Positions 6,205 to 61,158 of a stretch of DNA of 64,000 nucleotides are shown here, one piece after another. The stretch lies in assembly GCA_029261055.1 (NCBI GenBank), contig JAJDCA010000071.1, positions 153,778 to 217,777 on the forward strand, written 5' to 3'. The notes below the pieces were generated by a model. That model did not search any database. It had not been told where the DNA came from and saw nothing but the letters and a program-made list of their open reading frames with translations. Made by a program: the position numbers and the translations under genes. This DNA is from Candidatus Omnitrophota bacterium (GTDB lineage Bacteria; Omnitrophota; Gorgyraeia; Zapsychrales; Zapsychraceae). Numbering within the stretch: the stretch's first letter is position 1; each line of letters starts with the position of its first letter.

Positions 6205-6239
6205 CCTGCCTGTCGGTAGACAGGCTCGCCACGGATTGG
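6205..6239 (+). promoter_or_regulatory. Conserved leader element: hairpin (gcctgtc-ggta-gacaggc) followed by invariant CTCGCCACGGATTGG
   Basis: The same architecture occurs at 52244..52273. The hairpin there has a different stem sequence but the same structure, with the identical 15-nt motif after it. Confidence 0.5.
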
Positions 6240-6267
6240 CCTATTTTTAACTCAATAGAGGAAAAAT

Positions 6268-9200: not shown

Positions 9201-11340
9201 TGCGCAACTTTCTACAGAAGAATTAATTTATCTTAATGGCATTGCGGCAGGAAATGAATCGTTCTGGTTAGAAGCGTGGAGAATGCGCAATGCTTTTCAA
9301 AACAGTCCGGATGAGGTCGAAAGACTAATAATCCTTGAGGATGTTTTTAATGGCAAATCAATAGAGTTGGGGCTTTTAAAAATAGAAAAGGACGAAAAAA
9401 AGAAGGATAAGGAAAAAATAGCAATACTTGAAGTTGAAATGAAATCGATCGAAGAAACAATTGACCTTCTTTTAGAGAAAAAGCAAGAGATTTTAAGTGA
9501 AGTAGAGTATGTTGCGGAGGATGAGAATGAACAGAATCTAGCCATGTTAGTAGGGCTGAATCAGAAGATTGATCAATGGCTGCAGGGGCTTGAAAAAGAT
9601 GAAGACGCGGCGATGGCAGCGTTTAAATCATTGCTCCTTAAGATTAAACAGAAAATAACGGGGATATCTAATCGGAAAAAAATTGTTGTCGAGGATATTC
9701 CAGGTCTTGAGACGCTTGGGGTATCGATGGAAAATTTCCTAAATGCAGAAGGTATCCATACACCCAAAGATGCGGCTAAGTTGGGTAAGAGCATCAATGA
9801 GACGATAAACAGAGCGATTAAAGCATTTAGAAAGCGAGGTTCAGTGGATTTTACAGAAGATAATCTTTTCGCACTTCTTCTTAAGAAATATGATGAAAAT
9901 GTGCCCATTAATCGGGACGATTTAATGAAAGATTTAGAAAAATTTTCCCTAGGTGTGTATTCGAATTCTGTTGAGTTTGGCCTTATCAAATTACAATTAC
10001 AAATGAAAGTGTTTCTAAATCGGAACGTCGAGTGGTTTTTGAGTCCTATGCATCACTTTCCTCAAGCGGTGGCCAGGGCCAGTCAAGATAATAATATTGG
10101 GAGAACTATTGAAATGTTGGGCGAAATTTCGACGTATTTAGATGATGGAGTAACCTTTGCTGGAAACGCGGCGAGTAGGATATTCAAGAAGTATAAATAC
10201 ATAGATGAAAATAATTATGAAGAGATGGCCGATGAGTATGCACAAGTAGTGCGTTCTCTTCAAGATCACATCAAACAAATTGCAGATGAAGATCATGAGG
10301 AATTTCAAGAGATGATAGATATTTTAAATGCCAGTATTCAGCAACAGCTTGAAGATGTCTTGGGGGGTATTGCAGAGGCTAAAGTTCCTTATGTAGAAGA
10401 AAGAGGAGGTAAACGTTTTTCCATAGGTATTCCTTATGATTTGAGGGATAGCTTTGCTAAAAATGTAGTGAGTATCTATGAACGCCATACTGACTGGATG
10501 AACATTCTTAAAGTATCTTTAAAAGGGACCTATCGTGATTTGAAAATTAAAATAGATGAAGTGCGGGAGATGGAGAAAAAGTTCATAAATGATTATTTTA
10601 ATGTCAGGCCAAATAGCAATCTTTTGAAGGAAGAAGAAAAAGAAATATATATCCCAAGAGTAGAAGAGTTTTATGAGAAGTTAGCTGAATTTGAAGGAGT
10701 AAAAATGCCATCTAAGGAGAAGCGTTGGATTACGGGGTGGATTTTAAAATTAGAGGGCATATATAAAGGATTAGGAGGGGCAGACAAGGTTATTGATCGC
10801 GTGAATGTAAAGACAATAGGCGACGGCATGGACACCTGGGATGATTTGCCGGATTTTGATCAAATAACGGCAGAATTAGATGACTCCATGATGGCCACGA
10901 CTCTGGCAGAATTGCTAGAGAAATTGAAAATGTCAAAAGATGAAGTGGATAAAAAGGCTGTTACAAAACAAATATTTAGACTGGTGGACGAAGATTTAGA
11001 CGAGCCTTTAAAAGGTAGATTTCTTAAACAATTCACTGAATTAAATGGTGAAACGGATAAAGCGAGCATAACTCCCATTGGTGGTATTAATTTTGATTCG
11101 GCGATGTTGAATTTGCAGATTAAGCGCGATGGGGCTGGGGTGCCCTTGCCTTTGATTGAGCAGGATATGGATTTGGGTATGCGTGTCCAAGGATTTTTGC
11201 CGATTATTATTAATGCTACTCCAGTAAGCCTGCCGCAGTTGCTTGGTTTTTCCGATACTGTACCGCAAGAGGCCGATTCTTCGACTATGAGTCTGTCTTA
11301 TCACATCCTCACCCGCGACCCGCAGGATATTATCATTTAA
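6268..11340 (+). CDS. Giant secreted/surface protein of unknown function (1690 aa). N-terminal conserved domain, long K/E-rich coiled-coil centre, conserved C-terminal ~65-aa module
   Basis: N-terminal signal/anchor (positively charged, then hydrophobic, AQS). Residues ~40-375 are about 70% identical to the 52327 paralog. The central region is strongly lysine/glutamate-rich with heptad-like repeats. The C-terminal block GGINFDSAMLNLQIKRDGAGVPLP…LPIIINATPVSLPQLLGF is shared with the paralog. I recognise no known domain. Confidence 0.75.
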   Translation: MFILRQKQRVRVAYRVLSAFIMAVFSVTTIIPSGYAQSVSLPTAGTVLNLPVPGTMVGITEGFTPALIKGITIYPDNPLMFDFIVDSGHSEMTGEALKDEASDMIKYFLAALTIPEKDLWVNLSPYEADRIIPDGLGDTSMGRDMLSQDYMLKQLTSSMMYPEDELGGEFWERVYDKAYEKFGNTDIPMNTFNKIWIVPQAAEVYEREKSAFVVGSRLKVMLEEDYVALQKNLGVEQYGLDAMPKSEAKVVSGVTSEVVREVLIPEIEREINEGANFAKLRQIYHAMILSTWYKKRLQESLLGQVYVDQNKTMGVDTQDKQINQKIYDQYVESFKKGVYNYIKEDYNPATQQITPRKYFSGGMNQSMLSRIFKFMDRPTRFEVAPTGFEISYQTSLIDANKDNASIAVRVKEEVESQVDFVLMNSEKEIVSDESMLQDFDPFFLMSLITKWSPKYEDDLKVFHFIRHLYLAWIATKGDLAKATMTLTEKSSFKKFIQDKTLVNKAIEGSLYVNNPNIKGLLKNIRTDITKAENKIKAVRREFVGVNEKSTQETQEAGMITLQNVLLKNKSAGKTGEEDVFGISISRFPSDQYGEFEANFIQKDGNTVQIIAWQENKIIDVDYNQTMENFYKDHNLFYRNNKKGIPTVIIEEKYGKNRKIYKITRGEGQEVMKQKDFKELVWNDTAMVTDKESQAAKKILFDFRESEANRMNTARIRRVHVLMNAMRIRYAIGKDEGSSVVGIFYDMEKAFLKKQSNFKHSDAILFYHTVLALDLPDEEYVTLKNSVMQSLFRLAERIMKEEGIVISVKEILAQKEKIKMAMINVLPHMKHFKHMEWGVYDYIDRVLSSSDKKWDEVYYYKYKVAISLGESYSKLGHSFEGVFAKIKGKIASFRANDYVDVFRQLNKKYTADALYQGLPYTVDGVRIFKSRLKQYRQDFRSAMDTHYKNIFKLALKGELEDSPYDIYENEGSSLQNQAGAQLSTEELIYLNGIAAGNESFWLEAWRMRNAFQNSPDEVERLIILEDVFNGKSIELGLLKIEKDEKKKDKEKIAILEVEMKSIEETIDLLLEKKQEILSEVEYVAEDENEQNLAMLVGLNQKIDQWLQGLEKDEDAAMAAFKSLLLKIKQKITGISNRKKIVVEDIPGLETLGVSMENFLNAEGIHTPKDAAKLGKSINETINRAIKAFRKRGSVDFTEDNLFALLLKKYDENVPINRDDLMKDLEKFSLGVYSNSVEFGLIKLQLQMKVFLNRNVEWFLSPMHHFPQAVARASQDNNIGRTIEMLGEISTYLDDGVTFAGNAASRIFKKYKYIDENNYEEMADEYAQVVRSLQDHIKQIADEDHEEFQEMIDILNASIQQQLEDVLGGIAEAKVPYVEERGGKRFSIGIPYDLRDSFAKNVVSIYERHTDWMNILKVSLKGTYRDLKIKIDEVREMEKKFINDYFNVRPNSNLLKEEEKEIYIPRVEEFYEKLAEFEGVKMPSKEKRWITGWILKLEGIYKGLGGADKVIDRVNVKTIGDGMDTWDDLPDFDQITAELDDSMMATTLAELLEKLKMSKDEVDKKAVTKQIFRLVDEDLDEPLKGRFLKQFTELNGETDKASITPIGGINFDSAMLNLQIKRDGAGVPLPLIEQDMDLGMRVQGFLPIIINATPVSLPQLLGFSDTVPQEADSSTMSLSYHILTRDPQDIII

Positions 11341-11408: not shown

Positions 11409-12737
11409 ATGAAAAGATTCATAGAAGAAGAATTAATAAAGTGGAAAGATGATTCAGATCGAAAGCCGCTTATTCTTTCAGGGGCTCGGCAAGTTGGCAA
11501 GTCTTATGTCATAGAACGCAACTTTTCTTCCAATTTTGATCAGGTTTTAAGTATCAACTTTGAAAAACAGCCTGAGTTTAAGGATTGTTTTGAGTCAGAC
11601 TTATCACCGGGAAAAATTATTCGTAAAATTGAGGCTTTAAGCCAGAAAAGAGTAGATATTGGTCGAACCCTAGTTTTTTTGGATGAGATTCAAATTTGCC
11701 CAAAAGCCATAACGGCTTTGCGGTATTTTTATGAAGAACTTCCTGCCTTACACCTTATCGCCGCGGGATCGCTGCTTGAGTTTACAATGGAAAGTATTTC
11801 TGTGCCTGTGGGGAGGGTAACTTACCGTCATTTAACTCCGTTATCATTTGAAGAATTTCTTTATAATTCCGGGAATGAAATTTTATTAGAAGAAATATCA
11901 CGGCATAATTTTGATGCCCCGTTTGATAAGGTGGTGGCTCAAAAAGCGGAAGTTCTTCTTAAAGAATATATGGCGATTGGAGGGATGCCGCAGGTTGTAG
12001 ATCGGTATATTCAGAATCAAGATTATTTAAAATGTCAGGAAATTTTGTCAGATTTGCTGGAAACTTATACTAACGATTTCCCTAAATATGGTCGAAGGGA
12101 TGCGGATTTGAAATATATTGATTTAGTTTTCGCGAGAGCTGCGCATCTCGTAGGAAAGCAGTTTAAATATGTTCATATTACGCGGGATATTCAATCAAAA
12201 TACATCAAACAAGGCGTTGACCTTCTTGTTAAGGCTGGCGTTTTGTCCTTGATTTACAAAACATATGGTTCTCCTCTGGGGGCTAATTATAATCCGCATC
12301 GTTTTAAGCTGCTATTTCTTGACATTGGTCTCATGCAAAGGGCATGTGGTTTGAACATATCTAGATGGGTAAGTGATGGGCATGATTTGATTCACGCAGG
12401 GGTGATCGCTGAACAGTTTGTAGGGCAGGAAATTGCAGCACATGCACATTTTAAAAAAGGAAGACTGTATTATTGGGAGAGAGACAAAAGGGGGAGTTCT
12501 GCGGAACTTGATTATCTTGTGGAAATGGCTGGGCGCATTCTACCTGTTGAGGTTAAATCAGGAACCATCGCCAGGTTAAAGAGTTTGCAGAATTTTCTGA
12601 AAGCGCATCCTGATATTCCTGAAGGAATTAAAGTATCTCTCGACAATTCTGGAAAGAAACAAAATATTCGTTCAATCCCGCTGTACGCCTTTGGGAGCTG
12701 GTTAAAACGGCAGGATTATACTAAATCTATTAAATAA
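11409..12737 (+). CDS. AAA+ superfamily ATPase (AAA_14 + DUF4143 / COG1373 family)
   Basis: Walker A 'GARQVGKS' and Walker B 'LVFLDEIQ'. Second paralog, immediately downstream of the giant gene. Confidence 0.7.
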   Translation: MKRFIEEELIKWKDDSDRKPLILSGARQVGKSYVIERNFSSNFDQVLSINFEKQPEFKDCFESDLSPGKIIRKIEALSQKRVDIGRTLVFLDEIQICPKAITALRYFYEELPALHLIAAGSLLEFTMESISVPVGRVTYRHLTPLSFEEFLYNSGNEILLEEISRHNFDAPFDKVVAQKAEVLLKEYMAIGGMPQVVDRYIQNQDYLKCQEILSDLLETYTNDFPKYGRRDADLKYIDLVFARAAHLVGKQFKYVHITRDIQSKYIKQGVDLLVKAGVLSLIYKTYGSPLGANYNPHRFKLLFLDIGLMQRACGLNISRWVSDGHDLIHAGVIAEQFVGQEIAAHAHFKKGRLYYWERDKRGSSAELDYLVEMAGRILPVEVKSGTIARLKSLQNFLKAHPDIPEGIKVSLDNSGKKQNIRSIPLYAFGSWLKRQDYTKSIK

Positions 12738-29176: not shown

Positions 29177-29264
29177 CCGTTGTAGCTCAGTTTCCGCCAC
29201 AAAGCGTGGCAGATCCGCCATGTATTTTGGTGGAGGTAGGGCAAGTGAGTTTATTCGTAATTTT
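29177..29264 (+). pseudogene. Degenerate tRNA-Thr 5' fragment (D-arm + anticodon arm) interrupted by a ~44-nt insertion
   Basis: gccgttgtagctcagtt … gggcaagtgagtttattcgtaatttt matches the 5' half of the intact tRNA-Thr at 31659. There is no 3' half. Confidence 0.55.
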
Positions 29265-29336
29265 TTAATATTTTGATGAATATTGGTATTGAAGTAATTA
29301 GCATCTTTTGGTGCCGTTTATTGTGAGTTTAAGAAA

Positions 29337-30801: not shown

Positions 30802-30848
30802 ACGTTGTAGCTCAGTTAGTAGGGCCAGTGAGTTCATTCGTAATTTTC
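30802..30848 (+). pseudogene. Degenerate tRNA-Thr 5' fragment
   Basis: acgttgtagctcagttagtagggccagtgagttcattcgtaatttt aligns to positions 1-~40 of the tRNA-Thr at 31659. The 3' half is absent. Confidence 0.55.
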
Positions 30849-30975
30849 TAAATTTGTAGATATATTGCTTTTTGAACAGAAAATAGGATATAAAATTTGA
30901 GAAATATACTGACATAATTAAACCTAGTAGAGTTTTTCATACTTAATAGAATTTAAGAATAATAAAGAATTTGTT

Positions 30976-31731: not shown

Positions 31732-31865
31732 TTTATTTAGGAATTTCGATGCTTTAACGAAATTCCAAACGGGTTTAATACCCTTGATTATCCTTCTTGA
31801 AAGATTTTTTATAAGATGATATACTTCTGCCTTAACTCATTGAAAGAAAATACGTTTTGCTTCTT

Positions 31866-42136: not shown

Positions 42137-43102
42137 GTGAGAAGGATGTTTTGGGTGGTCATTATTTTGGCGGTGTTTTTTGCGGTTAATATGGGGGTGG
42201 CGAGTTTTGCGGCTTCATTTGCTACGGCTTATGGAGGAAAGGTTCTTTCACAAAAATCGGCAGGGTTTCTTTTTGTTGGATTTGTGATTTTGGGATCAGT
42301 TGTGCTTGGCAAAAATGTGGCCATTACTTTAGGTCAAGAGATTGTGCCACCGCTTTTTATTGGAAAAAAGGCTTTGATCGTGATTTTTGTGTCTGCGGGA
42401 TCGAGTATGTTTATTTCCAACCTCATGAAGATTCCGCAGTCAACCAGCTTAGTTACAGTGGCCGCTATTGCCGGTGTAGGAGCATATTATCGGAAAGTTA
42501 ATCTTCCCGTTATTGCGGGGTTGATTCCATTTTGGATTTTGCTACCTTTGATAAGTTATTTTATTACGCGTTATATTACGGGATTAATTTACCCACCACG
42601 CAAAGGTAATTTTTGGGTATATGAACGTTTTATTCATCATCGTGAAAAGTTAAAGAAGTTTGTTATTATTACGGGGTGTTACAGCGCATTTTCCGTCGGA
42701 GCCAATAATGTGGCGAATGTGGCGGGGCCTCTAATCGGGTTAGAAGGTTTTTCAGTATTTTTTGCATTAGTTATATTTGCAGGCATCTACGGAATGGGAG
42801 CTTTTACATTTGACGGACCGTTAAAAACAGCAGGTAAACATATCGTGCCCTTAGGGTTGATGACAGCCTCGATTATTTCTTGTGTGAGTGGTACATTAAT
42901 GATATTTGCTTCTCTCTTTGGCGTACCACAATCATTTGTCATGTTACAGATGGGCGCCATCTTTGCCGTGGCTAGTTTGAAGCATGGAACGGAGTTAACA
43001 TTTAATGATGCATGGACAAAGAAAACATTGTATACTTGGACCATTAATCCCGTGCTGACATTTGTGATCAGCTGGGGCTTGTGCTTTTTGATTATTAGAT
43101 GA
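42137..43102 (+). CDS. PiT-family anion permease (putative sulfate/phosphate permease, CysP-like)
   Basis: Two 'GANNVAN/GANDVAN'-type PiT signature regions (GANNVANVAGPLIG). Context is cysK/H/D/N. Confidence 0.6.
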   Translation: MRRMFWVVIILAVFFAVNMGVASFAASFATAYGGKVLSQKSAGFLFVGFVILGSVVLGKNVAITLGQEIVPPLFIGKKALIVIFVSAGSSMFISNLMKIPQSTSLVTVAAIAGVGAYYRKVNLPVIAGLIPFWILLPLISYFITRYITGLIYPPRKGNFWVYERFIHHREKLKKFVIITGCYSAFSVGANNVANVAGPLIGLEGFSVFFALVIFAGIYGMGAFTFDGPLKTAGKHIVPLGLMTASIISCVSGTLMIFASLFGVPQSFVMLQMGAIFAVASLKHGTELTFNDAWTKKTLYTWTINPVLTFVISWGLCFLIIR

Positions 43103-43122
43103 ATCTGGAAAGTATCATGCTC

Positions 43123-43313
43123 GACACGAAATCGCTTTTAAGAGATTGCTGATAAATTATTTGCAATCTCCTAAGCAAAGATTAGCACATTCGGCTCAGA
43201 GGAGATTTCGTTCTGCTCGATCTCCAATTCGCCGCATGCACTAATCTTTGCTTTGAACGATTACAACTTTTAAGTTGTAAATTTTTGGTCAACCCGTCTT
43301 ATCAAGAGGTTGT
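43123..43313 (+). repeat. Structured repeat element, copy 1 (long imperfect hairpin; carries an extra 34-nt sub-hairpin gagattgc…gcaatctc)
   Basis: ~85% identical to 58597..58750 over the shared segments (cgaaatcgcttttaag…aaagattagcacattcggctcagaggag…ctccaattcgcc…atgcactaatcttt…cgattac…ggtcaa(c/t)ccgtctta..aagaggtt). Inverted-repeat arms pair into a long stem-loop. Confidence 0.6.
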
Positions 43314-43403
43314 GTTAAAGCCTGCAAGCGAATTGGACGCGACAAAAATACTACGTCCTCTGAGCTGAAAGGTTTTAACACAATTTCCAATAGACGGGTT
43401 GAC
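43288..43403 (+). promoter_or_regulatory. 116-nt perfect-ended hairpin (gtcaacccgtct … agacgggttgac) in the cysK 5' region
   Basis: 12-bp perfect terminal inverted repeat plus inner gtgttaaag/ttttaacac pairing. It ends 34 nt before the cysK ATG. Candidate cis-regulatory RNA structure. Confidence 0.4.
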
Positions 43404-43436
43404 TTGAAAGTGTCTTTTAATTTGGATAGTAGTAAA

Positions 43437-44369
43437 ATGAAAAATAAAATTATTAACAATGTGATTGAGCTTATCGGCGGGACGCCGTTGATACGGTTGA
43501 ATAAGATCGTTGCGCAAGAGAACTGTGCTGAGATATTAGGGAAGTTGGAGTCGTTTAATCCTGGGGGGAGTGTCAAAGATCGGCCTTGTTTGGCTATGAT
43601 TGAGAATGCTGAACGGAAAGGGATTTTGAAAAAAGGGGCAACGGTTATTGAGCCGACTACCGGGAATACCGGTATTGGGTTGGCTATGATTTGTGCGGTT
43701 AAAGATTATCGTTGTATTTTGACTATGCCTGAAGATTTAAGTTTGGAACGCATTTATCTTTTGCGTTCTTATGGGGCTGAAGTTATTTTGACGCCGGCCA
43801 AAAAAGGTATTCAAGGGGCTATAAAAAGGGCGGATGAGTTGAATCATAAAATAGCGGGCAGTTTTATGCCGCGGCAATTTAAAAGTCCTGAGAATCCTGA
43901 AGCCCATCGGCAGACAACAGCAAAAGAAATTTTAGAGGCTGTTGATGGAAAGATAGATGCCTTTGTCGCAAGCGTCGGTACAGGAGGGACAATAACTGGA
44001 ATCGGAGAAGTCTTGAAAAAAGAGTTTAATTCGATTAGAATTGTGGCCGTCGAACCCAAGAAAAGTGCTGTTTTATCTGGTCGACCGGCAGGAGCCCATA
44101 GAATTCAAGGTATCGGTGCGGGGTTTGTCCCAAAAACATTAAACCGCAATATTATTGATGAAATTATTTTAGTAGACGATCAAGAAGCCTTTGATATGTC
44201 ACGGCGTTTAGGGCACCAAGAAGGCCTATGTGTTGGGATTTCTTCAGGGGCCAATGTACTGGCAGCCTTGAAGGTAGCAAAAGATCTTGGTCCGGGTAAA
44301 CGTGTCGTAACCGTATTATGCGATACTGGTGAACGTTATTTTTCAATGGAACAATATTTTGAAGCGTAA
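43437..44369 (+). CDS. cysK: Cysteine synthase A (O-acetylserine sulfhydrylase)
   Basis: PLP-lysine motif 'SVKDRP'. 'TTGNTGIGLA' and 'GISSGA' motifs. Start at the ATG giving MKNKIINNVIELIGGTPLIRLNK. Confidence 0.9.
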   Translation: MKNKIINNVIELIGGTPLIRLNKIVAQENCAEILGKLESFNPGGSVKDRPCLAMIENAERKGILKKGATVIEPTTGNTGIGLAMICAVKDYRCILTMPEDLSLERIYLLRSYGAEVILTPAKKGIQGAIKRADELNHKIAGSFMPRQFKSPENPEAHRQTTAKEILEAVDGKIDAFVASVGTGGTITGIGEVLKKEFNSIRIVAVEPKKSAVLSGRPAGAHRIQGIGAGFVPKTLNRNIIDEIILVDDQEAFDMSRRLGHQEGLCVGISSGANVLAALKVAKDLGPGKRVVTVLCDTGERYFSMEQYFEA

Positions 44370-50592: not shown

Positions 50593-51762
50593 TTACAAAT
50601 CATTCAAGAGGTGGATATCAGAAGGGTCTTTTATGATAAGTTTTTTGGTGGCTTTTATGCGGTTGAAAAGGTTTAATTGCTTTTTAGTAAGTTCTCGATA
50701 ATATTTTGATTCAATTAAGGTTTTATTTTGTGTATAGAAATCAATTTCTATGCCGTCCTCGTATATGTAAGATGGGCTTGCCTGACGGATTTTTAAGAAA
50801 ATATAGTTTTCAAAAAGGCTCCCTTTGTCTCGAAACCCTGTAAACAAAGTGCGTATGCCAAGGTCCGGGGCGTAGCCTTTTTTAGGGGATAGAAGTGTTT
50901 CATTAGTTTTACCATGGCGTGGGATAAGGTAAATTAAGTAGGTTTCGGCAAACATCGAAAGATAGCGTTTAGCTGTATCGGGCGCAATAGAGAGTATTTT
51001 AGCCATTTTATTGATACTTATTTGTTTGCCGGCACGTTCCATAAGGAGCATGAAATAGTCTTTTATCATTTGAGGATTCTTAATGTTATGATAGGCAATA
51101 ATATCTTTATAAATAATGTCATCGACCAGGGTTTTTAAATATTCACGATCTGGGTGGAGAACATATTCAGGGATACCACCGGTTTTCATATAATCTTCAA
51201 AATACGGTTCTTTAAGATAGTTTTCTTTTTGTTTGATGGTGATGTTACGAAATTGGCAAAATTCTTCAAAATCAAGTGGGGCGATTTCTAAAATACGTTC
51301 TCTTCCGGTTAAAAGTGCTTTTTTATCTTTGAGTAAAGAAGTGCTTGAGGAAGACGTATAAATTTTTACGTTTTGATTGTCATAAAGGTTTTTTAGTTGT
51401 AAATGTGGATTTTTTTTGTAGGTAATTTCATCAAGAAAAAGATAGATTTTTTTGTTAAGAGGCAGTTTGAAAATTTTGCGATATTCTGAAATGATATCAA
51501 GGATGGATTTATTTATTAAGGTATAATCATCCAGGCTCACATAAAAAATGTGTTTTGGGTTAGCTCCTTTATGAATAAGCCGTTGGATAAAAAGTTTCAA
51601 TAGAGTCGTTTTTCCAACCCTTCGTAAGCCGGTAAGGATAACGATTGATTTTGTGTTGAGAAGATTTTCCATGGAAGAAAGTATGCGCGGACGATCTTTA
51701 ATTGCTTCTAGTGAAATGGGCTCTTCCCACCATGGATTGTATTGGTAGAGTGTTTCTTTCAT
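50593..51762 (-). CDS. AAA+ superfamily ATPase (AAA_14 + DUF4143 / COG1373 family)
   Basis: Walker A 'GLRRVGKTT' and Walker B 'YLFLDEIT'. Start trimmed to MKETLYQYNPWWEE by analogy with the paralogs. Third paralog, divergent to the second giant gene. Confidence 0.65.
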   Translation of the reverse strand: MKETLYQYNPWWEEPISLEAIKDRPRILSSMENLLNTKSIVILTGLRRVGKTTLLKLFIQRLIHKGANPKHIFYVSLDDYTLINKSILDIISEYRKIFKLPLNKKIYLFLDEITYKKNPHLQLKNLYDNQNVKIYTSSSSTSLLKDKKALLTGRERILEIAPLDFEEFCQFRNITIKQKENYLKEPYFEDYMKTGGIPEYVLHPDREYLKTLVDDIIYKDIIAYHNIKNPQMIKDYFMLLMERAGKQISINKMAKILSIAPDTAKRYLSMFAETYLIYLIPRHGKTNETLLSPKKGYAPDLGIRTLFTGFRDKGSLFENYIFLKIRQASPSYIYEDGIEIDFYTQNKTLIESKYYRELTKKQLNLFNRIKATKKLIIKDPSDIHLLNDL

Positions 51763-52162
51763 GCCTAAAGTATACGTTATAATCGTATATTTATCAAGGA
51801 AATTATACGATAATGATAAAATAATAATGTAATTGTTAAATACCATGAAATAAGAAATTGACAATTTTGAATATCATGTCCTTAAGATATGTAAGTATTT
51901 AGCATTCTGAGTTGTCGAAGAGCGTTAAAAGCATGAAATTATTTCTAGCAGGACATTGAAAGCCCTGCGCATTCCATGCTGACACCGGGGAATTTTCTGA
52001 GTGTTTTCTTAAAAAAATAAGTATTTTAAAAGAAATGTATCATGTTTTAAATCAATAGGTTATGCAATCTACAAATTTCTTCATTTTTATAATATATTAT
52101 AACATTATTTATTTCAATATGTTATGAATCATCTGGCTTCATTTCTCTCCACTTGACACTCG

Positions 52163-52213
52163 TCCAAAATATGTTATCTTTCCAGTATATTAATAAGAAA
52201 ACGTTTTATTCCA
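52163..52213 (+). promoter_or_regulatory. Putative sigma70-type promoter (TTGACA-N16-TATCTT) plus conserved block, paralogous to 6115..6166
   Basis: TTGACA 52163-52168, TATCTT 52185-52190. The block aaaatatgttatctttccagtatattaataagaaaacg is nearly identical to the one upstream of the first giant gene. Confidence 0.55.
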
Positions 52214-52243
52214 CATAATTACACCAATAATTCCTACAGCAGG

Positions 52244-52273
52244 TAGGTCTCGCCACGGATTGGTTAAATTTAT
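52244..52273 (+). promoter_or_regulatory. Conserved leader element: hairpin (cctac-agcag-gtagg) followed by invariant CTCGCCACGGATTGG
   Basis: The structure is conserved relative to 6205..6239 with a different stem sequence (compensatory changes). The 15-nt motif is identical. Confidence 0.5.
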
Positions 52274-52326
52274 AAAAATTAATTAGACATTGAACTACAA
52301 TGTTTTTTCATAATCCGGAGGAAATA

Positions 52327-55300
52327 ATGAACATTTACATAAAAAAACAACGTTTTTGTCTGTTTTACAGGGCTTTATCCGCCTTTATTGCCGTGGCATT
52401 CCTAACCACCAGCATTGTGCCGCAAGGGTTTGGGCTGAGCGCAGTCGAAGCCTATGCGCAGAGTATGTCTGTGCCAGCACCAATAGTGTTAAATTTGCCT
52501 GTACCGGGTACAATGGTCGGCATGACCGAAGTATTTACACCGGCAATGGTCAAGGGCATCACTATTCATCCGGATAATCCGCTTTTATTTGATTTTCTCA
52601 TCAATAAAGGGGATACCCATCTTAAAGGCGACGAATTAAAGACGGAAGCCAATAAATTGATTAAATATTTTTTGGCGGGCCTAACCGTGCCGGAGAAAGA
52701 AATGTGGGTTAACCTCAGTCCGTACGAAGCAGATAGAATTATCCCTGAAGGTTTTGGCGATACCGAAATGGGCCGGGATTTGCTTGCGCAAGATTACATT
52801 TTAAAACAGCTCACCTCATCATTGATGTATCCAGAAGATGAATTAGGTGAGGCCTTTTGGCAACGTGTTTATGAAAAATCTTATGAAAAATTTGGTCATA
52901 CAGATATTCCGATGAACACATTTAACAAAATTTGGATCGTGCCGGAAAACGCATCTGTGTATGAACACGAAGAAACTTCGACCGTGTATTTAGTGGATAG
53001 TCATTTGAAGGTGATGCTTGAAGAAGATTATGTTGCTGCGCAACATAATAGTGACGCGTCGCTCGTGGCTCGTGACTCGAAAAAACATTCGGATATCAAG
53101 CGCGCCACGCGTCACGCCATGCCTGCCGGCAGGCAGGAGCGACTAGCGACGAACCTTATCCGAGAGATTCTTATCCCCGAAATCGAACGCGAAGTCAACC
53201 AAGGCAAAACGTTCGCCAATCTGCGCCAGATTTATCATTCCGTTATTCTGGCCACGTGGTACAAACGAAAATTTGCTGTAGGGAACGAGCACCTGCCTGC
53301 CGGTAGGCAAGGTGCCCAATCCTTATTAGGACACGTGTATGTAGATCAAAACAAAACCAAAGGTGTAGATACGCAGGATAAAGACATTAACCAAAAGATT
53401 TATAATCAGTACGTCGAATCTTTCAAGAAAGGCGTTTACGATTACATCAAAGAAGATTATGATCCCGCGACTCGACAGATCATCCCGCGGAAATATTTCT
53501 CAGGAGGAGCGGAGCTTTTTCTGGCCAAAATAAATCACGCTATGCTCACTCCAGAAAGGCGTGTAGAGATAACAAGCGAGGGTAAGAATACAGATCGTGT
53601 TGTAGTGGAATTGAATGAAATCGGATTAAAAGGTACTGACTATGCACAAGTAGTTACAGATTCAGGAGAATATTTACAGCGGGCAGGTGATATTAAAAGT
53701 GCGGAAAATGTAGATGCAGTAATTAGTCCTATTGTCGATAATGCGATGCAAACATTTCCAGGCTTAATGAATAAATTTTCAAAGGATGGGTATGTTTTAC
53801 ATGCATTGGAACGAGGAGCTGATTTAACGCCTTGGGATGGAGAGGTTGTTATGGAATTGCTTGGTCAAATGACTGAAGGGCGTGAGTATGCGAATGGAGT
53901 TATTTATGATTCGGGTCATTATAGAAGCAGAAGTTTTACTTATTTTAACATGCCATTTTTGAGTGAATTGAGTGAAGATATTATTAGGTTTTCCGTTGAT
54001 TCATCTCATAAAAATCCAATCGAAGTAGTAGATACATCTGAAAATTTTGAGTTTTTTCTTGGTGAAAATAAAGAAACACAAAAAATTGAATTTTTAGCTT
54101 GGGAATGGAAACGACGCGATGTGAGCTATGAAGAACATAACATTTCCTATAAAGGTGAAAATGGGAAATATGATGTTCTTAAAATAAGCCCTAAGCAATA
54201 TGGGAATGTTTTGAGTAAAGGATTTGGAGTTGAAGAAAAACCTTCTAGTAATCAGATTGCCTATTTAGGGGCTACACAACTAAAAGGGAAAGAGTTTAAG
54301 GAATGGAATTTTTCTAATATTGAAGAAACTTCTCAGGGAAAGTGGGGGCATGGCTCTTCATATAGTATGGATTATCCTGAGTTTAAGAAAGACTTTATTC
54401 ATTACACGCAATATAGAAATGATGATGTAGATTTAATGACACACGTTTATTCAATTCCAGTAATTATGAAAGATAATCTTTCTTATAATATGGGTAAAAA
54501 TAAAAATAGCGAAGGTTTTGAAATTCGTATTGGCAGAAATAAAAATAGAGAAATTGAGTTTATGTTGTTAACAGCTCCACAAAAAATTATTTTAAGGTAT
54601 AAAAATAAGCTAGGAATGCCGAAAAGTAAAGTGATAACGAAAGCTGAACGTGATCAAATTTTAAAAGATCCGACAATAATTAATACAATAATATTTAATA
54701 GTAAGAAAATGTCCAAGGAATGGGTTGTTGATGAGGCAAAGGAAAAAGAATTTTCAGAAAACACTAAAACACGTATTCTAAATAATCAGGTAATAGTAGA
54801 TGAGCATACTAAGGTATTAAAAAATAAGAGAGTTGTGGAGATTAAAGAAAATGGAAAGAAGCCCTCCAACTTAATGCCGGAGAATAAAAAAGAACATGAA
54901 AAAGTTATGCGTATTAATAAAATAATAGAAGAGATGAAGTCGGTTGTTAAGAACCATTCTTTTCGTGACCTTTATTTTGGTCCAATTCTAGGACGAAAAA
55001 ATATTAAATCTTTTCGTGATTATTTAATAGCAGGGAATATACAAGACATTCAGGCGATTGTTTCTGGTATGAATCCACAGAAGGCAAAAGATAAGGGAGA
55101 AAAAAAGATTTTTAGAAAATATTATGAAAGTCCAAAATTTTCTAATTTAGCAACACAAATCAAATCAAAAGCAAAAGCTTTAATAGATAAGCTTCCTCAA
55201 ATCAAGGGAAAAAATCTAGAAGCCGAGATAAATTCTTTTCGTGAAGATGTTTTAAATGAAATTGAAAATCTTGATGCGGCGATGATTGGAAATGGTCAAG

Positions 55301-56097
55301 ATAATACCACCGTGTCGGCAGAAATAAAGCCAACTATCGTTATGATAGAAGATAAGGACGAACCTAATTCTAGCGAGCCTGATAAAGCTATGATGGAGAA
55401 AAAGACAATTTTATTAGTTGAGGATGATGAAGATATAAGAAAAGGATTGAAGGATTTCTTTGAGTCGAGAGATTACAATGTTATTGCGATGGAAAATGGT
55501 AAAGAGGCTTTAACACTTATAATAAAGAGAAAGGAAATGAAAGAGCCTCTTGATCTTGTTATAAGTGACTTAGATATGCCAGAGATGGATGGGATGGAGT
55601 TGCTAGAAAATGCAGAAAAAATATGGCCCGAATTACTTTTTATTATGCAATCAGGGAGAATGCCTTCAAATATTTCTGGTTTGCTTGAGAGGAAATCTAA
55701 TGTACATAAGGCTTTGGATAAAAGATTTGCTTTAGAGAAATATGAATCTGCGTTAAATGATTTGTGGGGGGATGTTGATTCAGCAATGATAAGGGCGGAG
55801 GAAGTGACGGGGGTAAATAAAGTTGGTGGTATCAATCTTGACCCGGCCATGCTGGATTTGCAGATCAAGCGTGATGGCAACGGTGTACCATTGCCGGTGA
55901 GTGAACAGGATTTTTCGATGATGCATATTGAAGGGGTTTTGCCTGTTATTATCAATGTAACGCCAGTTAATATTCCTATGCTGCTAGGTTTTGCAAATGA
56001 CGTACTCCCTGTTGCTGGCTGTCCATCGGATGATGAAATGATTGATTGCGATCGCGACTTGATTTCCATCAAACCGGAAGAGGAGGTTTTTTTGTAG
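52327..56097 (+). CDS. Giant secreted/surface protein paralog (1256 aa) with an embedded CheY-like receiver (REC) domain near the C-terminus
   Basis: Start at the ATG preceded by CCGGAGGA. N-terminal ~400 aa are about 70% identical to the 6268 protein. REC domain at ~residues 1030-1150 (LLVEDDEDIRK…LVISDLDMPEMDG…IMQSG…). C-terminal module GGINLDPAMLDLQIKRDGNGVPLP…LPVIINVTPVNIPMLLGF is shared with the paralog. Confidence 0.75.
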   Translation: MNIYIKKQRFCLFYRALSAFIAVAFLTTSIVPQGFGLSAVEAYAQSMSVPAPIVLNLPVPGTMVGMTEVFTPAMVKGITIHPDNPLLFDFLINKGDTHLKGDELKTEANKLIKYFLAGLTVPEKEMWVNLSPYEADRIIPEGFGDTEMGRDLLAQDYILKQLTSSLMYPEDELGEAFWQRVYEKSYEKFGHTDIPMNTFNKIWIVPENASVYEHEETSTVYLVDSHLKVMLEEDYVAAQHNSDASLVARDSKKHSDIKRATRHAMPAGRQERLATNLIREILIPEIEREVNQGKTFANLRQIYHSVILATWYKRKFAVGNEHLPAGRQGAQSLLGHVYVDQNKTKGVDTQDKDINQKIYNQYVESFKKGVYDYIKEDYDPATRQIIPRKYFSGGAELFLAKINHAMLTPERRVEITSEGKNTDRVVVELNEIGLKGTDYAQVVTDSGEYLQRAGDIKSAENVDAVISPIVDNAMQTFPGLMNKFSKDGYVLHALERGADLTPWDGEVVMELLGQMTEGREYANGVIYDSGHYRSRSFTYFNMPFLSELSEDIIRFSVDSSHKNPIEVVDTSENFEFFLGENKETQKIEFLAWEWKRRDVSYEEHNISYKGENGKYDVLKISPKQYGNVLSKGFGVEEKPSSNQIAYLGATQLKGKEFKEWNFSNIEETSQGKWGHGSSYSMDYPEFKKDFIHYTQYRNDDVDLMTHVYSIPVIMKDNLSYNMGKNKNSEGFEIRIGRNKNREIEFMLLTAPQKIILRYKNKLGMPKSKVITKAERDQILKDPTIINTIIFNSKKMSKEWVVDEAKEKEFSENTKTRILNNQVIVDEHTKVLKNKRVVEIKENGKKPSNLMPENKKEHEKVMRINKIIEEMKSVVKNHSFRDLYFGPILGRKNIKSFRDYLIAGNIQDIQAIVSGMNPQKAKDKGEKKIFRKYYESPKFSNLATQIKSKAKALIDKLPQIKGKNLEAEINSFREDVLNEIENLDAAMIGNGQDNTTVSAEIKPTIVMIEDKDEPNSSEPDKAMMEKKTILLVEDDEDIRKGLKDFFESRDYNVIAMENGKEALTLIIKRKEMKEPLDLVISDLDMPEMDGMELLENAEKIWPELLFIMQSGRMPSNISGLLERKSNVHKALDKRFALEKYESALNDLWGDVDSAMIRAEEVTGVNKVGGINLDPAMLDLQIKRDGNGVPLPVSEQDFSMMHIEGVLPVIINVTPVNIPMLLGFANDVLPVAGCPSDDEMIDCDRDLISIKPEEEVFL
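53120..53135. repeat. Palindromic repeat copy (tgcctgccggcaggca) inside the giant gene, encoding an MPAGRQE insertion
   Basis: 16-bp perfect palindrome. It coincides with an extra peptide segment that is absent from the paralog. Confidence 0.55.
53289..53315. repeat. Imperfect palindromic repeat copy (cacctgcctgccggtaggcaaggtg) inside the giant gene, encoding a …HLPAGRQGAQ insertion
   Basis: Same family. It coincides with a 13-aa in-frame insertion relative to the paralog (KRKFAVGNEHLPAGRQGAQSLLG vs KKRLQESLLG). Confidence 0.5.
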
Positions 56098-57156: not shown

Positions 57157-58584
57157 ATGAAAAATAAAATCCTTTGGAAATTTTTAGGGGCGTATCTTCC
57201 TTTAATTTTGTTGGCTATTCTTGTGCTTAATTTTTTTGTGAGTTTTAGCTTACGAAAACATTTTGAAAAGAAAATTGCCGATCAATTGCATAGTAGTTCT
57301 CTTTTAATTGGTGATATTTTTGGAACAACATTATGGCAGAATCAACAAGAAAAAATTATTCAACAAAAAGTCAAAGATCTGGGGCAAAGATTAAATATTC
57401 GTATTACGATTATTGGTAAAAATGGTGAAGTTTTGGGGGATTCTGAAAAGAATCCACAACATATGGAGTTGCATAATAATCGTCCTGAAGTCATAGATGC
57501 TCTTAGATATGGACTTGGAGAGAGTTCACGCTACAGCAGCACGCTTAAATATGATATGAAATATTTAGCGACAACGGTTCGTGATAATGGAGGTGTGCTT
57601 GGCGTTATTCGTTTGGCTCTTCCATTAACAGAGGTTGGGGCGCAGATCCGTGTAATTTATCGGGCGGTTTTAATCGGTGGGATTTTTGCTGCATTTTTGA
57701 TGCTGATCATCGGTTATTTTATTTCGCGTAGTATCACTACGCCTATTAGTGAAATGAGAGATATTGCCGGGCGAATTGCTAAAGGGGATTTTTCACGAAA
57801 ATTGAAAGTTAAAAGTAAAGATGAATTGGGTCAGCTGGCGCATTCTATGAATTCTATGGCAGATGAATTACAAATGAAAATTAGTCATTTGGAAAGAATG
57901 GAGCAGATGAAGACGGACTTTGTTGCCAATGTTTCACATGAACTTAAGACGCCGTTAACGTCTATTAAAGGTTTTATTGAAACTTTAGAGCATGGGGCCG
58001 TGGATGACAAGGAAACGGCTAAGCGGTTTATGGGTATTATTCGCAAACATGCTGATTCTTTAAGTAATATTGTTGATGATTTATTGAGTCTATCTGAAAT
58101 TGAACCTGGAAAGAATGAATTAATAAAAGTGCCGTGTGATTTGAAAGGAATATTAGATGAAGTTATCTTAGGGTTTAGTCATCGGTTGAAAGGAAAAAAC
58201 CAACAGTTAACGTTGGAGGTTAAAGGCAGAAATTTTCAACTTAAGGCGGATAAGATTAAGCTTGAGCAGATATTTGTTAATTTGATTGATAATGCTAGTA
58301 AATATACGCCGGAAGGTGGGGAAATTAAGATTACAATGGATGAACAAAATGATGTTTTGCAGGTAATTGTGCAAGATAATGGCATAGGCATTCCTAAGGA
58401 AGATTTAGATAATGTCTTTGAGAGGTTTTATCGTGTAGACAAAGCGCGTTCCCGCGAATTAGGGGGGACAGGTCTTGGATTGTCTATTGTTAAACATATT
58501 GTCGCTTTGCATAAAGGAACTATCGATTTAAAAAGTGAGATTAATAAAGGTACGGCCATAACGATTTCTTTTCCGAAAGTTTAA
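57157..58584 (+). CDS. phoR: Sensor histidine kinase, PhoR-like (TM, HAMP, HisKA, HATPase_c)
   Basis: Two TM helices, HAMP, H-box 'FVANVSHELKTPLTSI', N/G boxes (…DNGIGIP…GGTGLGLSIV…). Confidence 0.75.
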   Translation: MKNKILWKFLGAYLPLILLAILVLNFFVSFSLRKHFEKKIADQLHSSSLLIGDIFGTTLWQNQQEKIIQQKVKDLGQRLNIRITIIGKNGEVLGDSEKNPQHMELHNNRPEVIDALRYGLGESSRYSSTLKYDMKYLATTVRDNGGVLGVIRLALPLTEVGAQIRVIYRAVLIGGIFAAFLMLIIGYFISRSITTPISEMRDIAGRIAKGDFSRKLKVKSKDELGQLAHSMNSMADELQMKISHLERMEQMKTDFVANVSHELKTPLTSIKGFIETLEHGAVDDKETAKRFMGIIRKHADSLSNIVDDLLSLSEIEPGKNELIKVPCDLKGILDEVILGFSHRLKGKNQQLTLEVKGRNFQLKADKIKLEQIFVNLIDNASKYTPEGGEIKITMDEQNDVLQVIVQDNGIGIPKEDLDNVFERFYRVDKARSRELGGTGLGLSIVKHIVALHKGTIDLKSEINKGTAITISFPKV

Positions 58585-58596
58585 CCTTAATCAGAG

Positions 58597-58750
58597 ACGC
58601 GAAATCGCTTTTAAGTAAAGATTAGCACATTCGGCTCAGAGGAGACCTCGTTCTGCTCGGCCTCCAATTCGCCTAATGCACTAATCTTTACTTTGAGCGA
58701 TTACGACTCAACTCGGTCAATCCGTCTTAATAAGAGGTTATGTATCTTCA
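58597..58750 (+). repeat. Structured repeat element, copy 2
   Basis: Matches 43123..43313, minus that copy's 34-nt sub-hairpin. Lies between the phoR stop and the Na/Pi transporter start. Confidence 0.6.
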
Positions 58751-58822
58751 CCTAATCTTCACATTTCCTTCACAGCAGTTTCACATAAAAACGTATAATC
58801 ATTTAATAGGAGTTCATACGTT

Positions 58823-59950
58823 TTGAAAAAAGAAACACTAAAAACAATTTTAAAATTTGCTGCCGTTTTTGCCCTTCTCTATTTTTTTCTTGTAAGTATT
58901 GGATTGATGGGGAAGGCTTTTAAGGGATTTGGTAAAGATTTTGCCGAAGCCCTTTTGAATACAACGTCTAATCCTTTTATCGGGCTTTTTGTTGGGATAT
59001 TTGCTACGAGTTTGGTGCAGAGTTCTTCCACAACCACATCTATTATTGTCGGCATGGTCGCCGCTGGTACCCTTACGGTCAGTGGAGCCGTGCCGATTAT
59101 TTTTGGAGCTAATATCGGAACAACCGTAACGAATTCTCTTGTTGCACTGGGGCATGTTTCGCGGCGGGAGGAATTTAAGCGGGCCATTGCTGGGGCCACG
59201 ATTCATGATTTTTTTAATTTAATTTGTGTAGCCATTCTTTTTCCCATTGAATTAGCTACAGGATTTCTCCAAAAAATGGCGACATGGTTAGCTAATGCTT
59301 TTATAAATTTTGGAGGTATAAAATTTACTAGTCCACTTAAGACAGCTACGACACCTGCGATTAGTGGTATTAAACATTTTATTCTGGATTTATTCCCGTC
59401 AAATCATACCTTGGGATATATCATGGTATTGGTCATTGCCTTTGGTATGCTTTATGTTGCCTTGTTTTTTATCGTAAAAGTGATGAAATCTATGGTAATG
59501 AAACAAACAGAGGCCGCATTTAACAATGTGATTGATAAGAATGGGTTTGTCGGGATTTTAGCTGGGGCTCTTTTTACGTTTCTTGTCCAGAGCAGTTCAA
59601 TTACAACGTCTATTTTAGTGCCTCTTATTGCATCCGGCATTATTAGTGTTGAGGCGGCGTTCCCTATTACTATGGGGGCAAATATTGGGACAACGGCGAC
59701 CGCTATGCTGGCTTCTTTTGCTACGGGAAACCCTTCAGCGATTATTATTGCTTTTGTGCATTTATTGTTTAATGTGATCGGGGTATCCTGTATTTATCCC
59801 ATCGCTATATTTCGAAAAATTCCTATTAAGCTGGCGAAAAGTTTAGGAGAGCTGGCCTTTCATAAAAGACGGTATGCTATTGCGTATGTGCTAAGTTTAT
59901 TCTTTATTATTCCGGGATTATTGATTATGATATCAAAGTTATTAAAATAA
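58823..59950 (+). CDS. Na+/phosphate cotransporter (NptA / type II Na-Pi cotransporter family)
   Basis: Duplicated 'GANIGTTVTN…' Na/Pi-cotransporter motifs. TTG start per the ORF track. Confidence 0.75.
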   Translation: MKKETLKTILKFAAVFALLYFFLVSIGLMGKAFKGFGKDFAEALLNTTSNPFIGLFVGIFATSLVQSSSTTTSIIVGMVAAGTLTVSGAVPIIFGANIGTTVTNSLVALGHVSRREEFKRAIAGATIHDFFNLICVAILFPIELATGFLQKMATWLANAFINFGGIKFTSPLKTATTPAISGIKHFILDLFPSNHTLGYIMVLVIAFGMLYVALFFIVKVMKSMVMKQTEAAFNNVIDKNGFVGILAGALFTFLVQSSSITTSILVPLIASGIISVEAAFPITMGANIGTTATAMLASFATGNPSAIIIAFVHLLFNVIGVSCIYPIAIFRKIPIKLAKSLGELAFHKRRYAIAYVLSLFFIIPGLLIMISKLLK

Positions 59951-59970: not shown

Positions 59971-60639
59971 ATGTTTAAAAATATTTTATCTTTTTGGAAA
60001 GGGCGCGAATTTTTAGAGCAAGCCTTAGGTGAATTTAAAGTAATGCTTACAAATAGTCAGGAGATGTATACTCTTGTGACGCGAAAGCTTATTGATAATG
60101 AAGAGATTGAGGATCTTGAGGATAAAATTTATACTTTGGATAAAGAAATTAATGAAAATGAAAAGGCTATCCGTAAGCGTATTGTAGAGCATTTAATTAT
60201 GCAGCCATCAGTGGATGTTTCTGTTTGTCTTACGTTGATGAGTGTGGTCAAAGATGCGGAAAGATTAGGGGATTATTGTAAAAATTTGCATGAGATAATT
60301 GATCTTTTGGACAAGCCAATCAAAAAAGAAATTTACGAAGATCTTTTTAATGGTACAGATACGCAGCTTGCTGAATTTTTTGAGAAGACCAAGACCGCTT
60401 TTATGGAATCGGACGAGGATATTGCTGCCAGTTCTTGGGATGAGAAAAAACAAATTTCCAAACGATGTGACGAAATTATCGAAAAACTTGCCAAAAGTAG
60501 CTTAGATGTCAACACAGCGGTCTGCTTCACACTTATTGCCCGCCATTTCAAACGCCTGTCGTCCCACCTAACCAATATCGCCACCTCCGTCATTTTGTCG
60601 GTTGATGAATTAGATTATTTTGATGAGAGTAGAAAATAA
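59971..60639 (+). CDS. PhoU-domain protein (Na/Pi-cotransporter-associated regulator)
   Basis: Two PhoU-like helical repeats. Lies directly downstream of the Na/Pi cotransporter. Confidence 0.6.
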   Translation: MFKNILSFWKGREFLEQALGEFKVMLTNSQEMYTLVTRKLIDNEEIEDLEDKIYTLDKEINENEKAIRKRIVEHLIMQPSVDVSVCLTLMSVVKDAERLGDYCKNLHEIIDLLDKPIKKEIYEDLFNGTDTQLAEFFEKTKTAFMESDEDIAASSWDEKKQISKRCDEIIEKLAKSSLDVNTAVCFTLIARHFKRLSSHLTNIATSVILSVDELDYFDESRK

Positions 60640-60798
60640 TATCAAAATAATCTAATTATCCATTGGTATGGGTATAATTTTTTTATAACTTATTCGACAA
60701 AAAGCTCCCTTTTTGATATAGTTCTCATCAATTAAGCCATTAAATTGGTTTGGTAAAGGGCGTAGTTTTTAATTTTAACTGTAATTAAGGAGAGAAAA

Positions 60799-61080: not shown

Positions 61081-61158
61081 TTAGGAATTTCTAGCTGTAA
61101 AGAAATTCCAAAAGGATCTAATTCCCCGAGGCTTGCCTCGAGGAGATTCATTACTAGA

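Follow-up and report, generated by a model that had tools for sequence, protein, structure and literature searches.

The stretch of DNA analysed here (64,000 nucleotides of contig JAJDCA010000071.1, positions 153,778 to 217,777, from the Candidatus Omnitrophota assembly GCA_029261055.1; hereafter the window) carries a long nested hairpin upstream of cysK and a second copy of it upstream of a Na/Pi cotransporter gene. The window genes lie almost all on the + strand and the sequence is identical to Logan contigs of sequencing run SRR15505515. The first copy is found within a sulfate-assimilation cluster composed of an Rrf2 regulator, a PiT/PHO4-type permease, the element, cysK, cysH, a cysD-like and a cysN/C-like gene. 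The second is preceded by a response-regulator and histidine-kinase pair and followed by the Na/Pi cotransporter gene and phoU. Homologues of the permease and of the cotransporter that carry a taxonomic name belong to Candidatus Omnitrophota/Omnitrophica, and the related loci in the genome collection come nearly all from Omnitrophota metagenome-assembled genomes (MAGs). The hairpins belong to a multi-copy family whose members have a conserved asymmetric apex and covarying stems, are found in either orientation and occupy gene junctions that differ from one genome to the next. We infer that they are small non-autonomous mobile or amplifiable palindromic repeats, and consider it probable that they represent a lineage-restricted, non-coding hairpin repeat family that spread into the spacers of at least three Omnitrophota genomes. 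Such elements are of the kind of repetitive extragenic palindromes (REP/BIME/REPIN), ERIC sequences and MITEs (miniature inverted-repeat transposable elements). The family is previously undescribed while the kind of element is already known.

The two copies, whose positions had been given correctly in a preliminary description made from the sequence alone, were compared by global alignment of segments 43121–43315 and 58596–58745. The alignment has 131 matches and 17 mismatches (88.5% identity over aligned columns), the identity in the 97-nt central core being 90%. An exact 29-mer (AAAGATTAGCACATTCGGCTCAGAGGAGA) is present at both sites and nowhere else in the window, the expectation from shuffled sequences being 0.00. 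Both regions fold beyond their shuffled counterparts, with a minimum free energy of −112.3 kcal/mol (z = −10.3) for 43115–43405 and of −55.2 kcal/mol (z = −5.3) for 58590–58760. Hairpins are common after stop codons, and unrelated ones, terminators for instance, might have come to look alike by chance. This explanation has a negligible probability: no 29-mer and no such identity over ~150 nt are expected, the shuffle tests described below for two further elements point the same way, and neither locus has a U-tract terminator. The A-type unit of the first copy (W1A) is built from outermost arms CGAAATCGC/(A)ACGATT and a main stem AAGCAAAGATTAGCAC/GCACTAATCTTTGCTT. It carries an additional sub-hairpin of ~33 nt (GAGATTGC...GCAATCTC) placed between TAAG direct repeats. 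This extra hairpin of the cysK copy, noticed at the outset, is real and is an internal insertion or duplication variant; no second copy of it was found in any DNA compared. The A-type unit of the second copy (W2A) starts 12 nt past the stop codon of the histidine-kinase gene (58582–58584).

W1A is followed by a 116-nt hairpin with perfect 12-bp ends (43288–43299 and 43392–43403) which had been described as a feature of its own. The hairpin exists, but it is not a separate feature. Its apex on the minus strand, TTTCAGCTCAGAGGACG[TAGTATTTTTGTCG]CGTCCAATTCGCTTGCA, displays the same two blocks that surround the inner hairpin of the A copies (TTCGGCTCAGAGGAGAT[...]ATCTCCAATTCGCCGCA), whereas its outer stems are unrelated to those of A. 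The chained local alignment of W1A with this hairpin was matched by 3 of 5000 shuffles, and the signal is found in this orientation only. The composite motif GCTCAGA(10–45 nt)WATTCGC occurs three times in the window, in W1A, in W2A and in the 116-nt hairpin, and in neither strand of the 1.25 Mb of compared DNA elsewhere. Judged by the shared apex blocks and the orientation-specific shuffle support, the 116-nt hairpin belongs to this family as an inverted and diverged copy (W1B), and the cysK locus is an inverted doublet A(+)/B(−) with a spacer of ~15 nt. The right-hand end common to both copies (GGTCAAYCCGTCTTA...GAGGTT) corresponds to the terminal ~30 nt of the inverted B element. Copy 2 is thus an A unit followed by a truncated B unit of which ~30 nt are kept.

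Four further members were identified, bringing the family to seven (W1A, W2A, W1B(−), W3, La(+), Lb(−) and J1). A third A-type copy, W3, lies on the + strand at ~64232–64309, ~230 nt past the window end, in Logan contig L202 that overlaps the right end of the window and itself ends inside the element. Its sequence is GAAATCGCTTTTGAACAAAAATTAACACATTCGGCTCAGAAGAGTCCTCCTTCTGGTCGGCCTCTAATTCGCCTC. W3 abuts the start codon of a divergent comF-like gene, to which it is antisense. None of 10,000 shuffles scores as well as its alignments with W1A and with W2A. An inverted doublet is present in the 335-bp cysK-cysH spacer of locus L004 (GCA_029261065.1, JAJDCB010000024.1), whose permease is 64% identical to that of the window. 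Its units La(+) (11895–11995) and Lb(−) (12060–12159) are separated by a 64-nt spacer and share a near-identical 57-nt apex (CTGTCCGGCTCAGAYATTCGCC..CCTTCTGGGC..GCTCAAACTCGCCTGACAG), while their perfect outer stems (26 and 20 bp) have nothing in common. Pairing is also possible between the two units, from the 3′ half of La to the 5′ half of Lb (26 nt, 88%). The similarity of W3 to La and Lb is orientation-specific and was reached by 2 and 0 of 10,000 shuffles, respectively. The seventh member, J1, was picked up by a profile of the six other sequences in JGI contig Ga0129284_10000729 (L201; permease 65% identical). It is a single unit with the sequence GCCATTCGGCTCAACGAACG[GTCCCCTTCGGGGCT]GCGTTCAATTCGCCTCATG, located between a second PAPS-reductase-family gene and cysN.

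A covariance model (R1) constructed from the alignment of all seven members (A5) gives them scores of 58–82 bits, with no additional match at E ≤ 10 across 1.27 Mb of related loci. Searches with blastn-short, nhmmer and cmsearch of 1.25–1.27 Mb of CysP loci (L120–L199, mostly Omnitrophota) and of the other loci of the relatives found members in L004 and L201 only. All DNA of the relatives was fetched around cysP, which biases the sample toward cys loci. The density of the elements is four units at three loci in ~64.3 kb for the window and its extension, two in 21 kb of L004 and one in 14.7 kb of L201. The Logan contig ends near these loci are, without exception, located inside an element (L001 in B, L002 in W2A, L202 in W3 and L005 in Lb). 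Such breaks are expected of repeats and palindromes in de Bruijn assemblies and hint that more copies exist. The features of the window and the junctions occupied by the family are listed in Table 1.

Table 1. Coordinates of the elements and neighbouring features in the window, and gene junctions in which family members are found.
Feature	Position	Strand	Remarks
PiT/PHO4-family permease gene, cysP-like	42146..43102	+	directly upstream of the W1 doublet; some homologues named 'sulfate permease'
W1A, A-type copy, nested hairpin	43121..43272	+	R1 78.6 bits
Extra sub-hairpin of W1A only	43143..43175	+	
Conserved apical core of W1A	43188..43238	+	CATT-CGGC-TCAGA-[GGAGAT..TTCTG..ATCTCC]-AATTC-GCCG-CATG
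Small AT-rich hairpin in the A-B spacer, ACAACTTTTAAGTTGT	43263..43278	+	12 extra nt, absent from copy 2
W1B, inverted diverged family member	43288..43403	−	R1 69.3 bits on the minus strand
cysK, PALP family	43437..44369	+	33 nt downstream of the W1B end
W2A, A-type copy lacking both W1A insertions	58596..58712	+	R1 81.5 bits
Conserved apical core of W2A	58628..58678	+	CATT-CGGC-TCAGA-[GGAGACC..TTCTG..GGCCTCC]-AATTC-GCCT-AATG
B-type remnant, terminal ~30 nt only, GGTCAATCCGTCTTAATAAGAGGTTATGTAT	58714..58745	+	matches 43287–43315
Probable Pho-box promoter of Na/Pi cotransporter-phoU, not part of the element	58747..58799	+	TTCAC(C/A) four times, TATAAT
W1 (window)			cysP-cysK junction
W2 (window)			between the kinase gene and the promoter of the Na/Pi gene
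W3 (past the window end)			directly upstream of the divergent comF-like gene
La/Lb (L004)			cysK-cysH junction
J1 (L201)			cysD-cysN junction

Each unit is a long hairpin of 80–150 nt, found singly or as part of an inverted doublet. All seven share an asymmetric apical module composed of CATT-CGGCTCAGA, an inner hairpin and then AATTCGCC; spelled out, it reads CATT-CGGC-TCAGA, the inner hairpin with a loop that is usually TTCTG, and AATTC-GCC(T)-nATG. The invariant or near-invariant positions of A5 are C-GCTCA (followed by GA in six of the seven), the TT of the apical loop (TTCTG in five of the seven) and AA-TCGC. Base pairing joins GGC in the first block to GCC in the last one and, as displayed in the A5 rows, a C·T mismatch is found directly beneath this helix in six of the seven members. 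The unpaired strands are TCAGA and AATTC in the W type and longer on each side in the L type. When A, B, La, Lb and J1 are compared, conservation is lowest in the outer, terminal arms and highest at the apex. The stems on either side of the module vary without constraint on their sequence, provided that both arms do so together. Standard base pairs fill 82.8% of the A5 cells, compared to 63.4% after shuffling (the observed value was not reached in 500 shuffles) and to 28–41% when the partners are slid. In the outer stem, 9 of 14 pairs are changed on both sides and none on one side only. None of the pairs in the modelled helices shows a G-U intermediate in its variation. The complement of the core strand (GCTCAGA..TTCGCC) folds 1.6–10 kcal/mol more stably in all six complete elements, because the core-strand mismatches are for the most part C·A or C·T. 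In this small sample of about four independent lineages, double changes without G-U and the stabler complement agree better with a palindrome preserved as DNA than with selection for an RNA helix on the sense strand.

The elements have been inserted at gene junctions that are otherwise tight. The spacer between the permease gene and cysK, measured by tblastn wherever the two are adjacent, is 334 bp long in the window, against −16, 1, 1, 15, 20, 22, 35 and 53 bp in the eight closest relatives with this gene order. Removal of 43121–43403 leaves ~51 bp, a length within the normal range. The spacers of the relatives gave no alignment with the window flanks from which the exact empty site might have been reconstructed. 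Other hairpins occur in such spacers of related genomes: a small one, CCCACTTNCGAAGTGGG, is present between cysP and cysK in L200 (~10960–10985) and in L006 (GCA_964541845.1; ~5045–5070), and the cysK-cysH spacer of L006 has at 6040–6160 a different nested hairpin without the family core.

The preliminary description had each copy wedged between a stop codon and the start of the next gene. This holds for copy 1, which ends 33 nt before cysK, whereas ~77 nt separate copy 2 from the Na/Pi gene. This second interval contains direct repeats TTCAC(C/A) at 58747, 58758, 58769 and 58780, with an exact spacing of 11 bp (a search with the array pattern gave two overlapping matches against 0.15 expected), followed by a TATAAT at 58794–58799, 24 nt upstream of the TTG start of the Na/Pi gene. 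PhoB/PhoP boxes in place of a −35 element are the layout of Pho regulon promoters. By this analogy the array and its TATAAT, found downstream of a phoP/phoR-like pair, are a probable Pho-box promoter. The similarity between W1 and W2 stops at 58745, exactly where the array starts. Because the Pho-box-like array and TATAAT follow W2, the element would lie upstream of the Na/Pi-phoU transcription start, at the 3′ end of the kinase transcript and not in a 5′ UTR. Copy 1 is presumably transcribed through within its operon, since only 33 nt separate B from cysK, no convincing promoter is found there and the genes overlap or nearly touch in relatives. Scans of both loci for promoter and terminator consensus sequences gave nothing above shuffle expectation. 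Further downstream of copy 2, a perfect inverted repeat of 17 bp extends across the stop codon of phoU (60608–60657).

This arrangement bears on the idea, raised in the preliminary description, of a shared attenuator or riboswitch. In its more general form, the hairpins would be cis-regulatory RNAs of operon transcripts whose sense hairpin binds a protein or ligand and sets the relative expression of the flanking cistrons, above all in operons of sulfate assimilation, the inverted partner providing an alternative pairing. Several observations agree with such a role. The loop sequences are conserved and the stems covary across three lineages, as do the conserved unpaired nucleotides and covarying helices of cis-regulatory RNAs; the predicted RNA folds are very stable; and the neighbours include sulfur- and phosphate-metabolism genes. 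The first or only copy is sense to the upstream gene at W1, W2, L004 and L201, and three of the five loci are cys-operon junctions (p ~0.02–0.03 in a rough count that is post hoc and biased by the fetching of loci around cysP). We nevertheless hold a regulatory RNA to be unlikely. The element is missing from the same junction in the eight closest relatives and occupies a different junction in each genome. The inverted W1B and Lb would give the mRNA complement of the core, W3 is antisense to the gene whose start it touches, and W2 sits between a stop codon and the probable promoter. The lack of G-U intermediates and the better fold of the complement in six out of six elements also argue against it, and the full-length identity of W1A and W2A (88.5%) points to recent duplication instead of independent conservation. 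Inverted copies, near-identity over the full length in one genome, the lack of G-U covariation, and locations that are neither conserved nor in a 5′ UTR set the elements apart from riboswitches such as SAM-I and from protein-binding leaders.

Database searches likewise give no support to a known RNA. With the gathering thresholds of Rfam 15, only two tRNAs are detected in the whole window, and at E ≤ 10 the segments 43050–43480 and 58540–58860 and the L004 elements give chance-level, sub-threshold matches to microRNA, snoRNA and IS605-orfB-II families. The Infernal comparison proposed at the outset thus brings no known family to threshold at either locus. The stretch CTTATCAAGAG had been said to recall the P1 region of SAM-I (RF00162), a resemblance without support: this family is not matched at its gathering threshold in the window, nor even at E ≤ 10 in the two segments. 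The attenuator or riboswitch interpretation loses its ground with the absence of an Rfam match, the location of W2 upstream of a probable promoter, the inverted copies and the absence at orthologous positions. Readings of the core as a K-turn, loop-E, hammerhead, twister or attC motif were dropped by visual inspection, the consensus nucleotides not being in place. Outside the related loci, an exact 23-mer had no match in the collection of species-representative genomes, and a gapped 24-base stem pattern had none in JGI metagenome contigs and IMG/VR viral contigs. The core pattern CGGCTCAGA..TTCTG..TCGCC returned 110 metagenome and 3 viral matches, which were attributed to chance as they lie in high-GC coding DNA without flanking inverted repeats. 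Six matches of a second core pattern in viral contigs were all coding, without hairpin or R1 match. Literature searches for REP sequences in Omnitrophota and for the run accession returned no papers.

The weak match to IS605-orfB-II (43125–43313; 17.4 bits, E = 1.5), together with a richness in hairpins that is typical of IS200/IS605 ends, might indicate that the elements are remnants of IS200/IS605 ends or of guide-RNA scaffolds (omega-RNA, IS605-orfB type), or else a free-standing small RNA gene. This origin is very improbable: the score is far from the gathering threshold of 88, copy 2 has no such match, neither tnpA nor tnpB was found nearby, and promoter and terminator consensus sequences do not bracket the elements. 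Recognition of hairpins as folded single strands and the existence of non-autonomous derivatives are features of IS200/IS605 ends and palindrome-associated transposable elements (PATEs) that the family described here would share, but the left and right ends of IS200/IS605 are co-oriented whereas the units of our doublets are inverted.

The preliminary description had also suggested a MITE-like element. This is the option that the evidence favours, on account of the additional copies in both orientations, the different junctions occupied and the empty or tiny spacers in relatives, though only in the loose sense of a small, non-coding, mobile palindromic repeat: neither conserved repeats at the termini nor consistent target-site duplications were found. 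A conventional MITE, that is, a deletion derivative of an insertion sequence (IS) with a DDE-type transposase, which a cut-and-paste reaction at its terminal inverted repeats would move and which would leave duplications of the target site, would account for small, non-coding, multi-copy, intergenic units with inverted repeats and for the outer arms common to W1A and W2A. Possible short direct repeats GAAAGT flank the W1 doublet (43110–43115 and 43406–43411). The duplication candidates have, however, different lengths at different sites and were found post hoc, and that of W2 belongs to the Pho-box array. A, B, La, Lb and J1 have unrelated terminal arms, and the outer arms are the least and the apex the most conserved part of the units, the reverse of what is expected if terminal repeats were recognised. 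A search of 1.27 Mb of related DNA revealed no parent IS. A conventional MITE is on these grounds quite improbable.

A closer comparison is offered by the REP, BIME and REPIN sequences and their RAYT transposases of the Y1/HUH type (Bertels & Rainey 2011, PMC3116915; Di Nocera et al. 2013, PMC3733652). Like them, the elements are intergenic, non-coding, imperfect palindromes with an asymmetric, conserved, putative recognition part in each unit. They also form inverted doublets with a short spacer that could fold into a larger hairpin (W1A/W1B, La/Lb and, as an A unit with a B remnant, W2), and are found inside operons and after stop codons, most copies having no adjacent transposase. The units differ from REP in being 80–150 nt long instead of 20–40 nt. 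In REP, a conserved tetranucleotide, GTAG or CGTC, marks one of the palindrome's ends (PMC3733652), while no such tag is present at the feet of W1A, W2A, La, Lb or J1 and CGTC is only found within the outer stem of B. Furthermore, the conserved module is here at the apex and it is the basal stems that vary. Other palindromic repeats of this type (ERIC/IRU of enterobacteria, Correia/NEMIS, RUP and BOX) have been reviewed (Delihas 2008, PMC2229807; PMC10969869). The family described here resembles ERIC in the length of its palindromes and in the size variants that arise from internal insertions (the 33-nt and 12-nt extras of W1A). ERIC-like repeats are imperfect palindromes of ~100–150 nt found in transcribed intergenic regions, with size variants due to internal insertions; they are co-transcribed, form long RNA hairpins and change the stability of the neighbouring cistron depending on their orientation. 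In sequence, the family has no similarity to these repeats. ERIC and Correia copies are conserved from end to end, termini included; our subfamilies have just the apex in common. The TA target duplications and the integration host factor (IHF) site of Correia elements are not seen in this family either.

The interpretation as a mobile repeat is based on the extra copies, their presence in both orientations and at different junctions, and the empty or tiny spacers of the relatives. In such a scheme, the conserved apex would be the recognition site of a trans-acting protein and the element would be mobilised or maintained as folded single-stranded or cruciform DNA. The closest analogy for the mobilising enzyme would be a Y1/HUH protein such as a RAYT or IS200-like transposase, and integron attC sites provide another parallel. 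Conservation of the apex and not of the termini, the conserved mismatch and a covariation made exclusively of Watson-Crick pairs would favour recognition of a folded strand over the action of a DDE enzyme on terminal repeats. By analogy with RAYT/IS200-type Y1 enzymes and attC, we put forward this mode of recognition as a tentative possibility. More speculative still is the view that the apex (CGGC-TCAGA ... AATTC-GCC with its C·T mismatch) is the module of an undescribed hairpin-specific protein system, either a recombination system similar to REP/RAYT or attC, or a domesticated protein-binding element; we regard it as a long shot. Passive effects in operon transcripts are a plausible secondary consequence, as known for REP, ERIC and Correia (PMC2229807, PMC10969869). 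The copy between cysP and cysK is likely to be co-transcribed because it is internal to the operon and leaves no room for a separate cysK promoter. Its very stable RNA hairpins could act as stability or processing barriers or as leaky terminators between cistrons, and so could the hairpin of W2 in the 3′ end of the kinase transcript.

A number of observations weigh against a mobile repeat. No transposase domain is found among the proteins of the 64-kb window (the gene list of L001 covers 31.8–43.3 kb). There is neither a consistent target-site duplication nor a terminal sequence common across subfamilies, and the features of a cut-and-paste MITE are thus missing. The family counts seven members in all, drawn from the 64-kb window and the loci fetched from relatives. 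The location of three of the five loci in cys operons, in three genomes, is a possible hint of function, with the sampling around cysP biasing this count, and the sense orientation of the first or only copy at four of the four loci that follow an upstream gene is not required of a selfish element. Finally, the core is kept across lineages whose CysP proteins are ~65% identical, for which a host function is an equally possible explanation.

Other sequences of the window deserve mention. A second small repeated hairpin (TTAGGAATTTC..GAAATTCCAAA..GG.T.TAAT.CCC) is found at 31737–31783, just after a tRNA-Thr gene, and at 61081–61126, after a rotamase open reading frame (ORF); this could be a terminator that the two sites share, or else a further mini-repeat. 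A 33-nt sequence (GTAGGGCMAGTGAGTTYATTCGTAATTTTYTAA) occurs at 29236–29268 and 30819–30851 with 91% identity, upstream of Sel1-repeat and Yip1-domain genes, and may represent a regulatory site common to both. Between DeoC-family and BamD/YfiO-like genes lies a perfect palindrome of 24 bp whose loop is 1 nt long (508–556). Two large paralogous ORFs without Pfam domain are located at 6268–11340 (1690 aa) and 52300–56097 (1265 aa). Their 5′ parts and upstream regions share 76–81% nucleotide identity (5983–7353 versus 52023–53508), and they are adjoined by AAA_14+DUF4143 ATPase genes (4827–5978 and 11409–12737 on the + strand, 50593–51864 on the − strand).

These results clear cysK and the Na/Pi gene of a misleading hint at a riboswitch or attenuator and document a repeat family in a phylum known only from MAGs. 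The elements break short-read assemblies and the family may for this reason be under-represented in MAGs. R1 and the core motif can be used for a census of the family, for a search of the enzyme acting on it and for a test of operon hairpins in the expression of sulfur-assimilation genes. Small mobile repeats usually keep conserved ends; with a conserved apex and variable stems, the mechanism by which this family spreads may differ from that of classical MITEs. If the version in which the element is domesticated were true, it would have been recruited repeatedly to the junctions of sulfate-assimilation operons, where it would uncouple the expression of adjacent cistrons.

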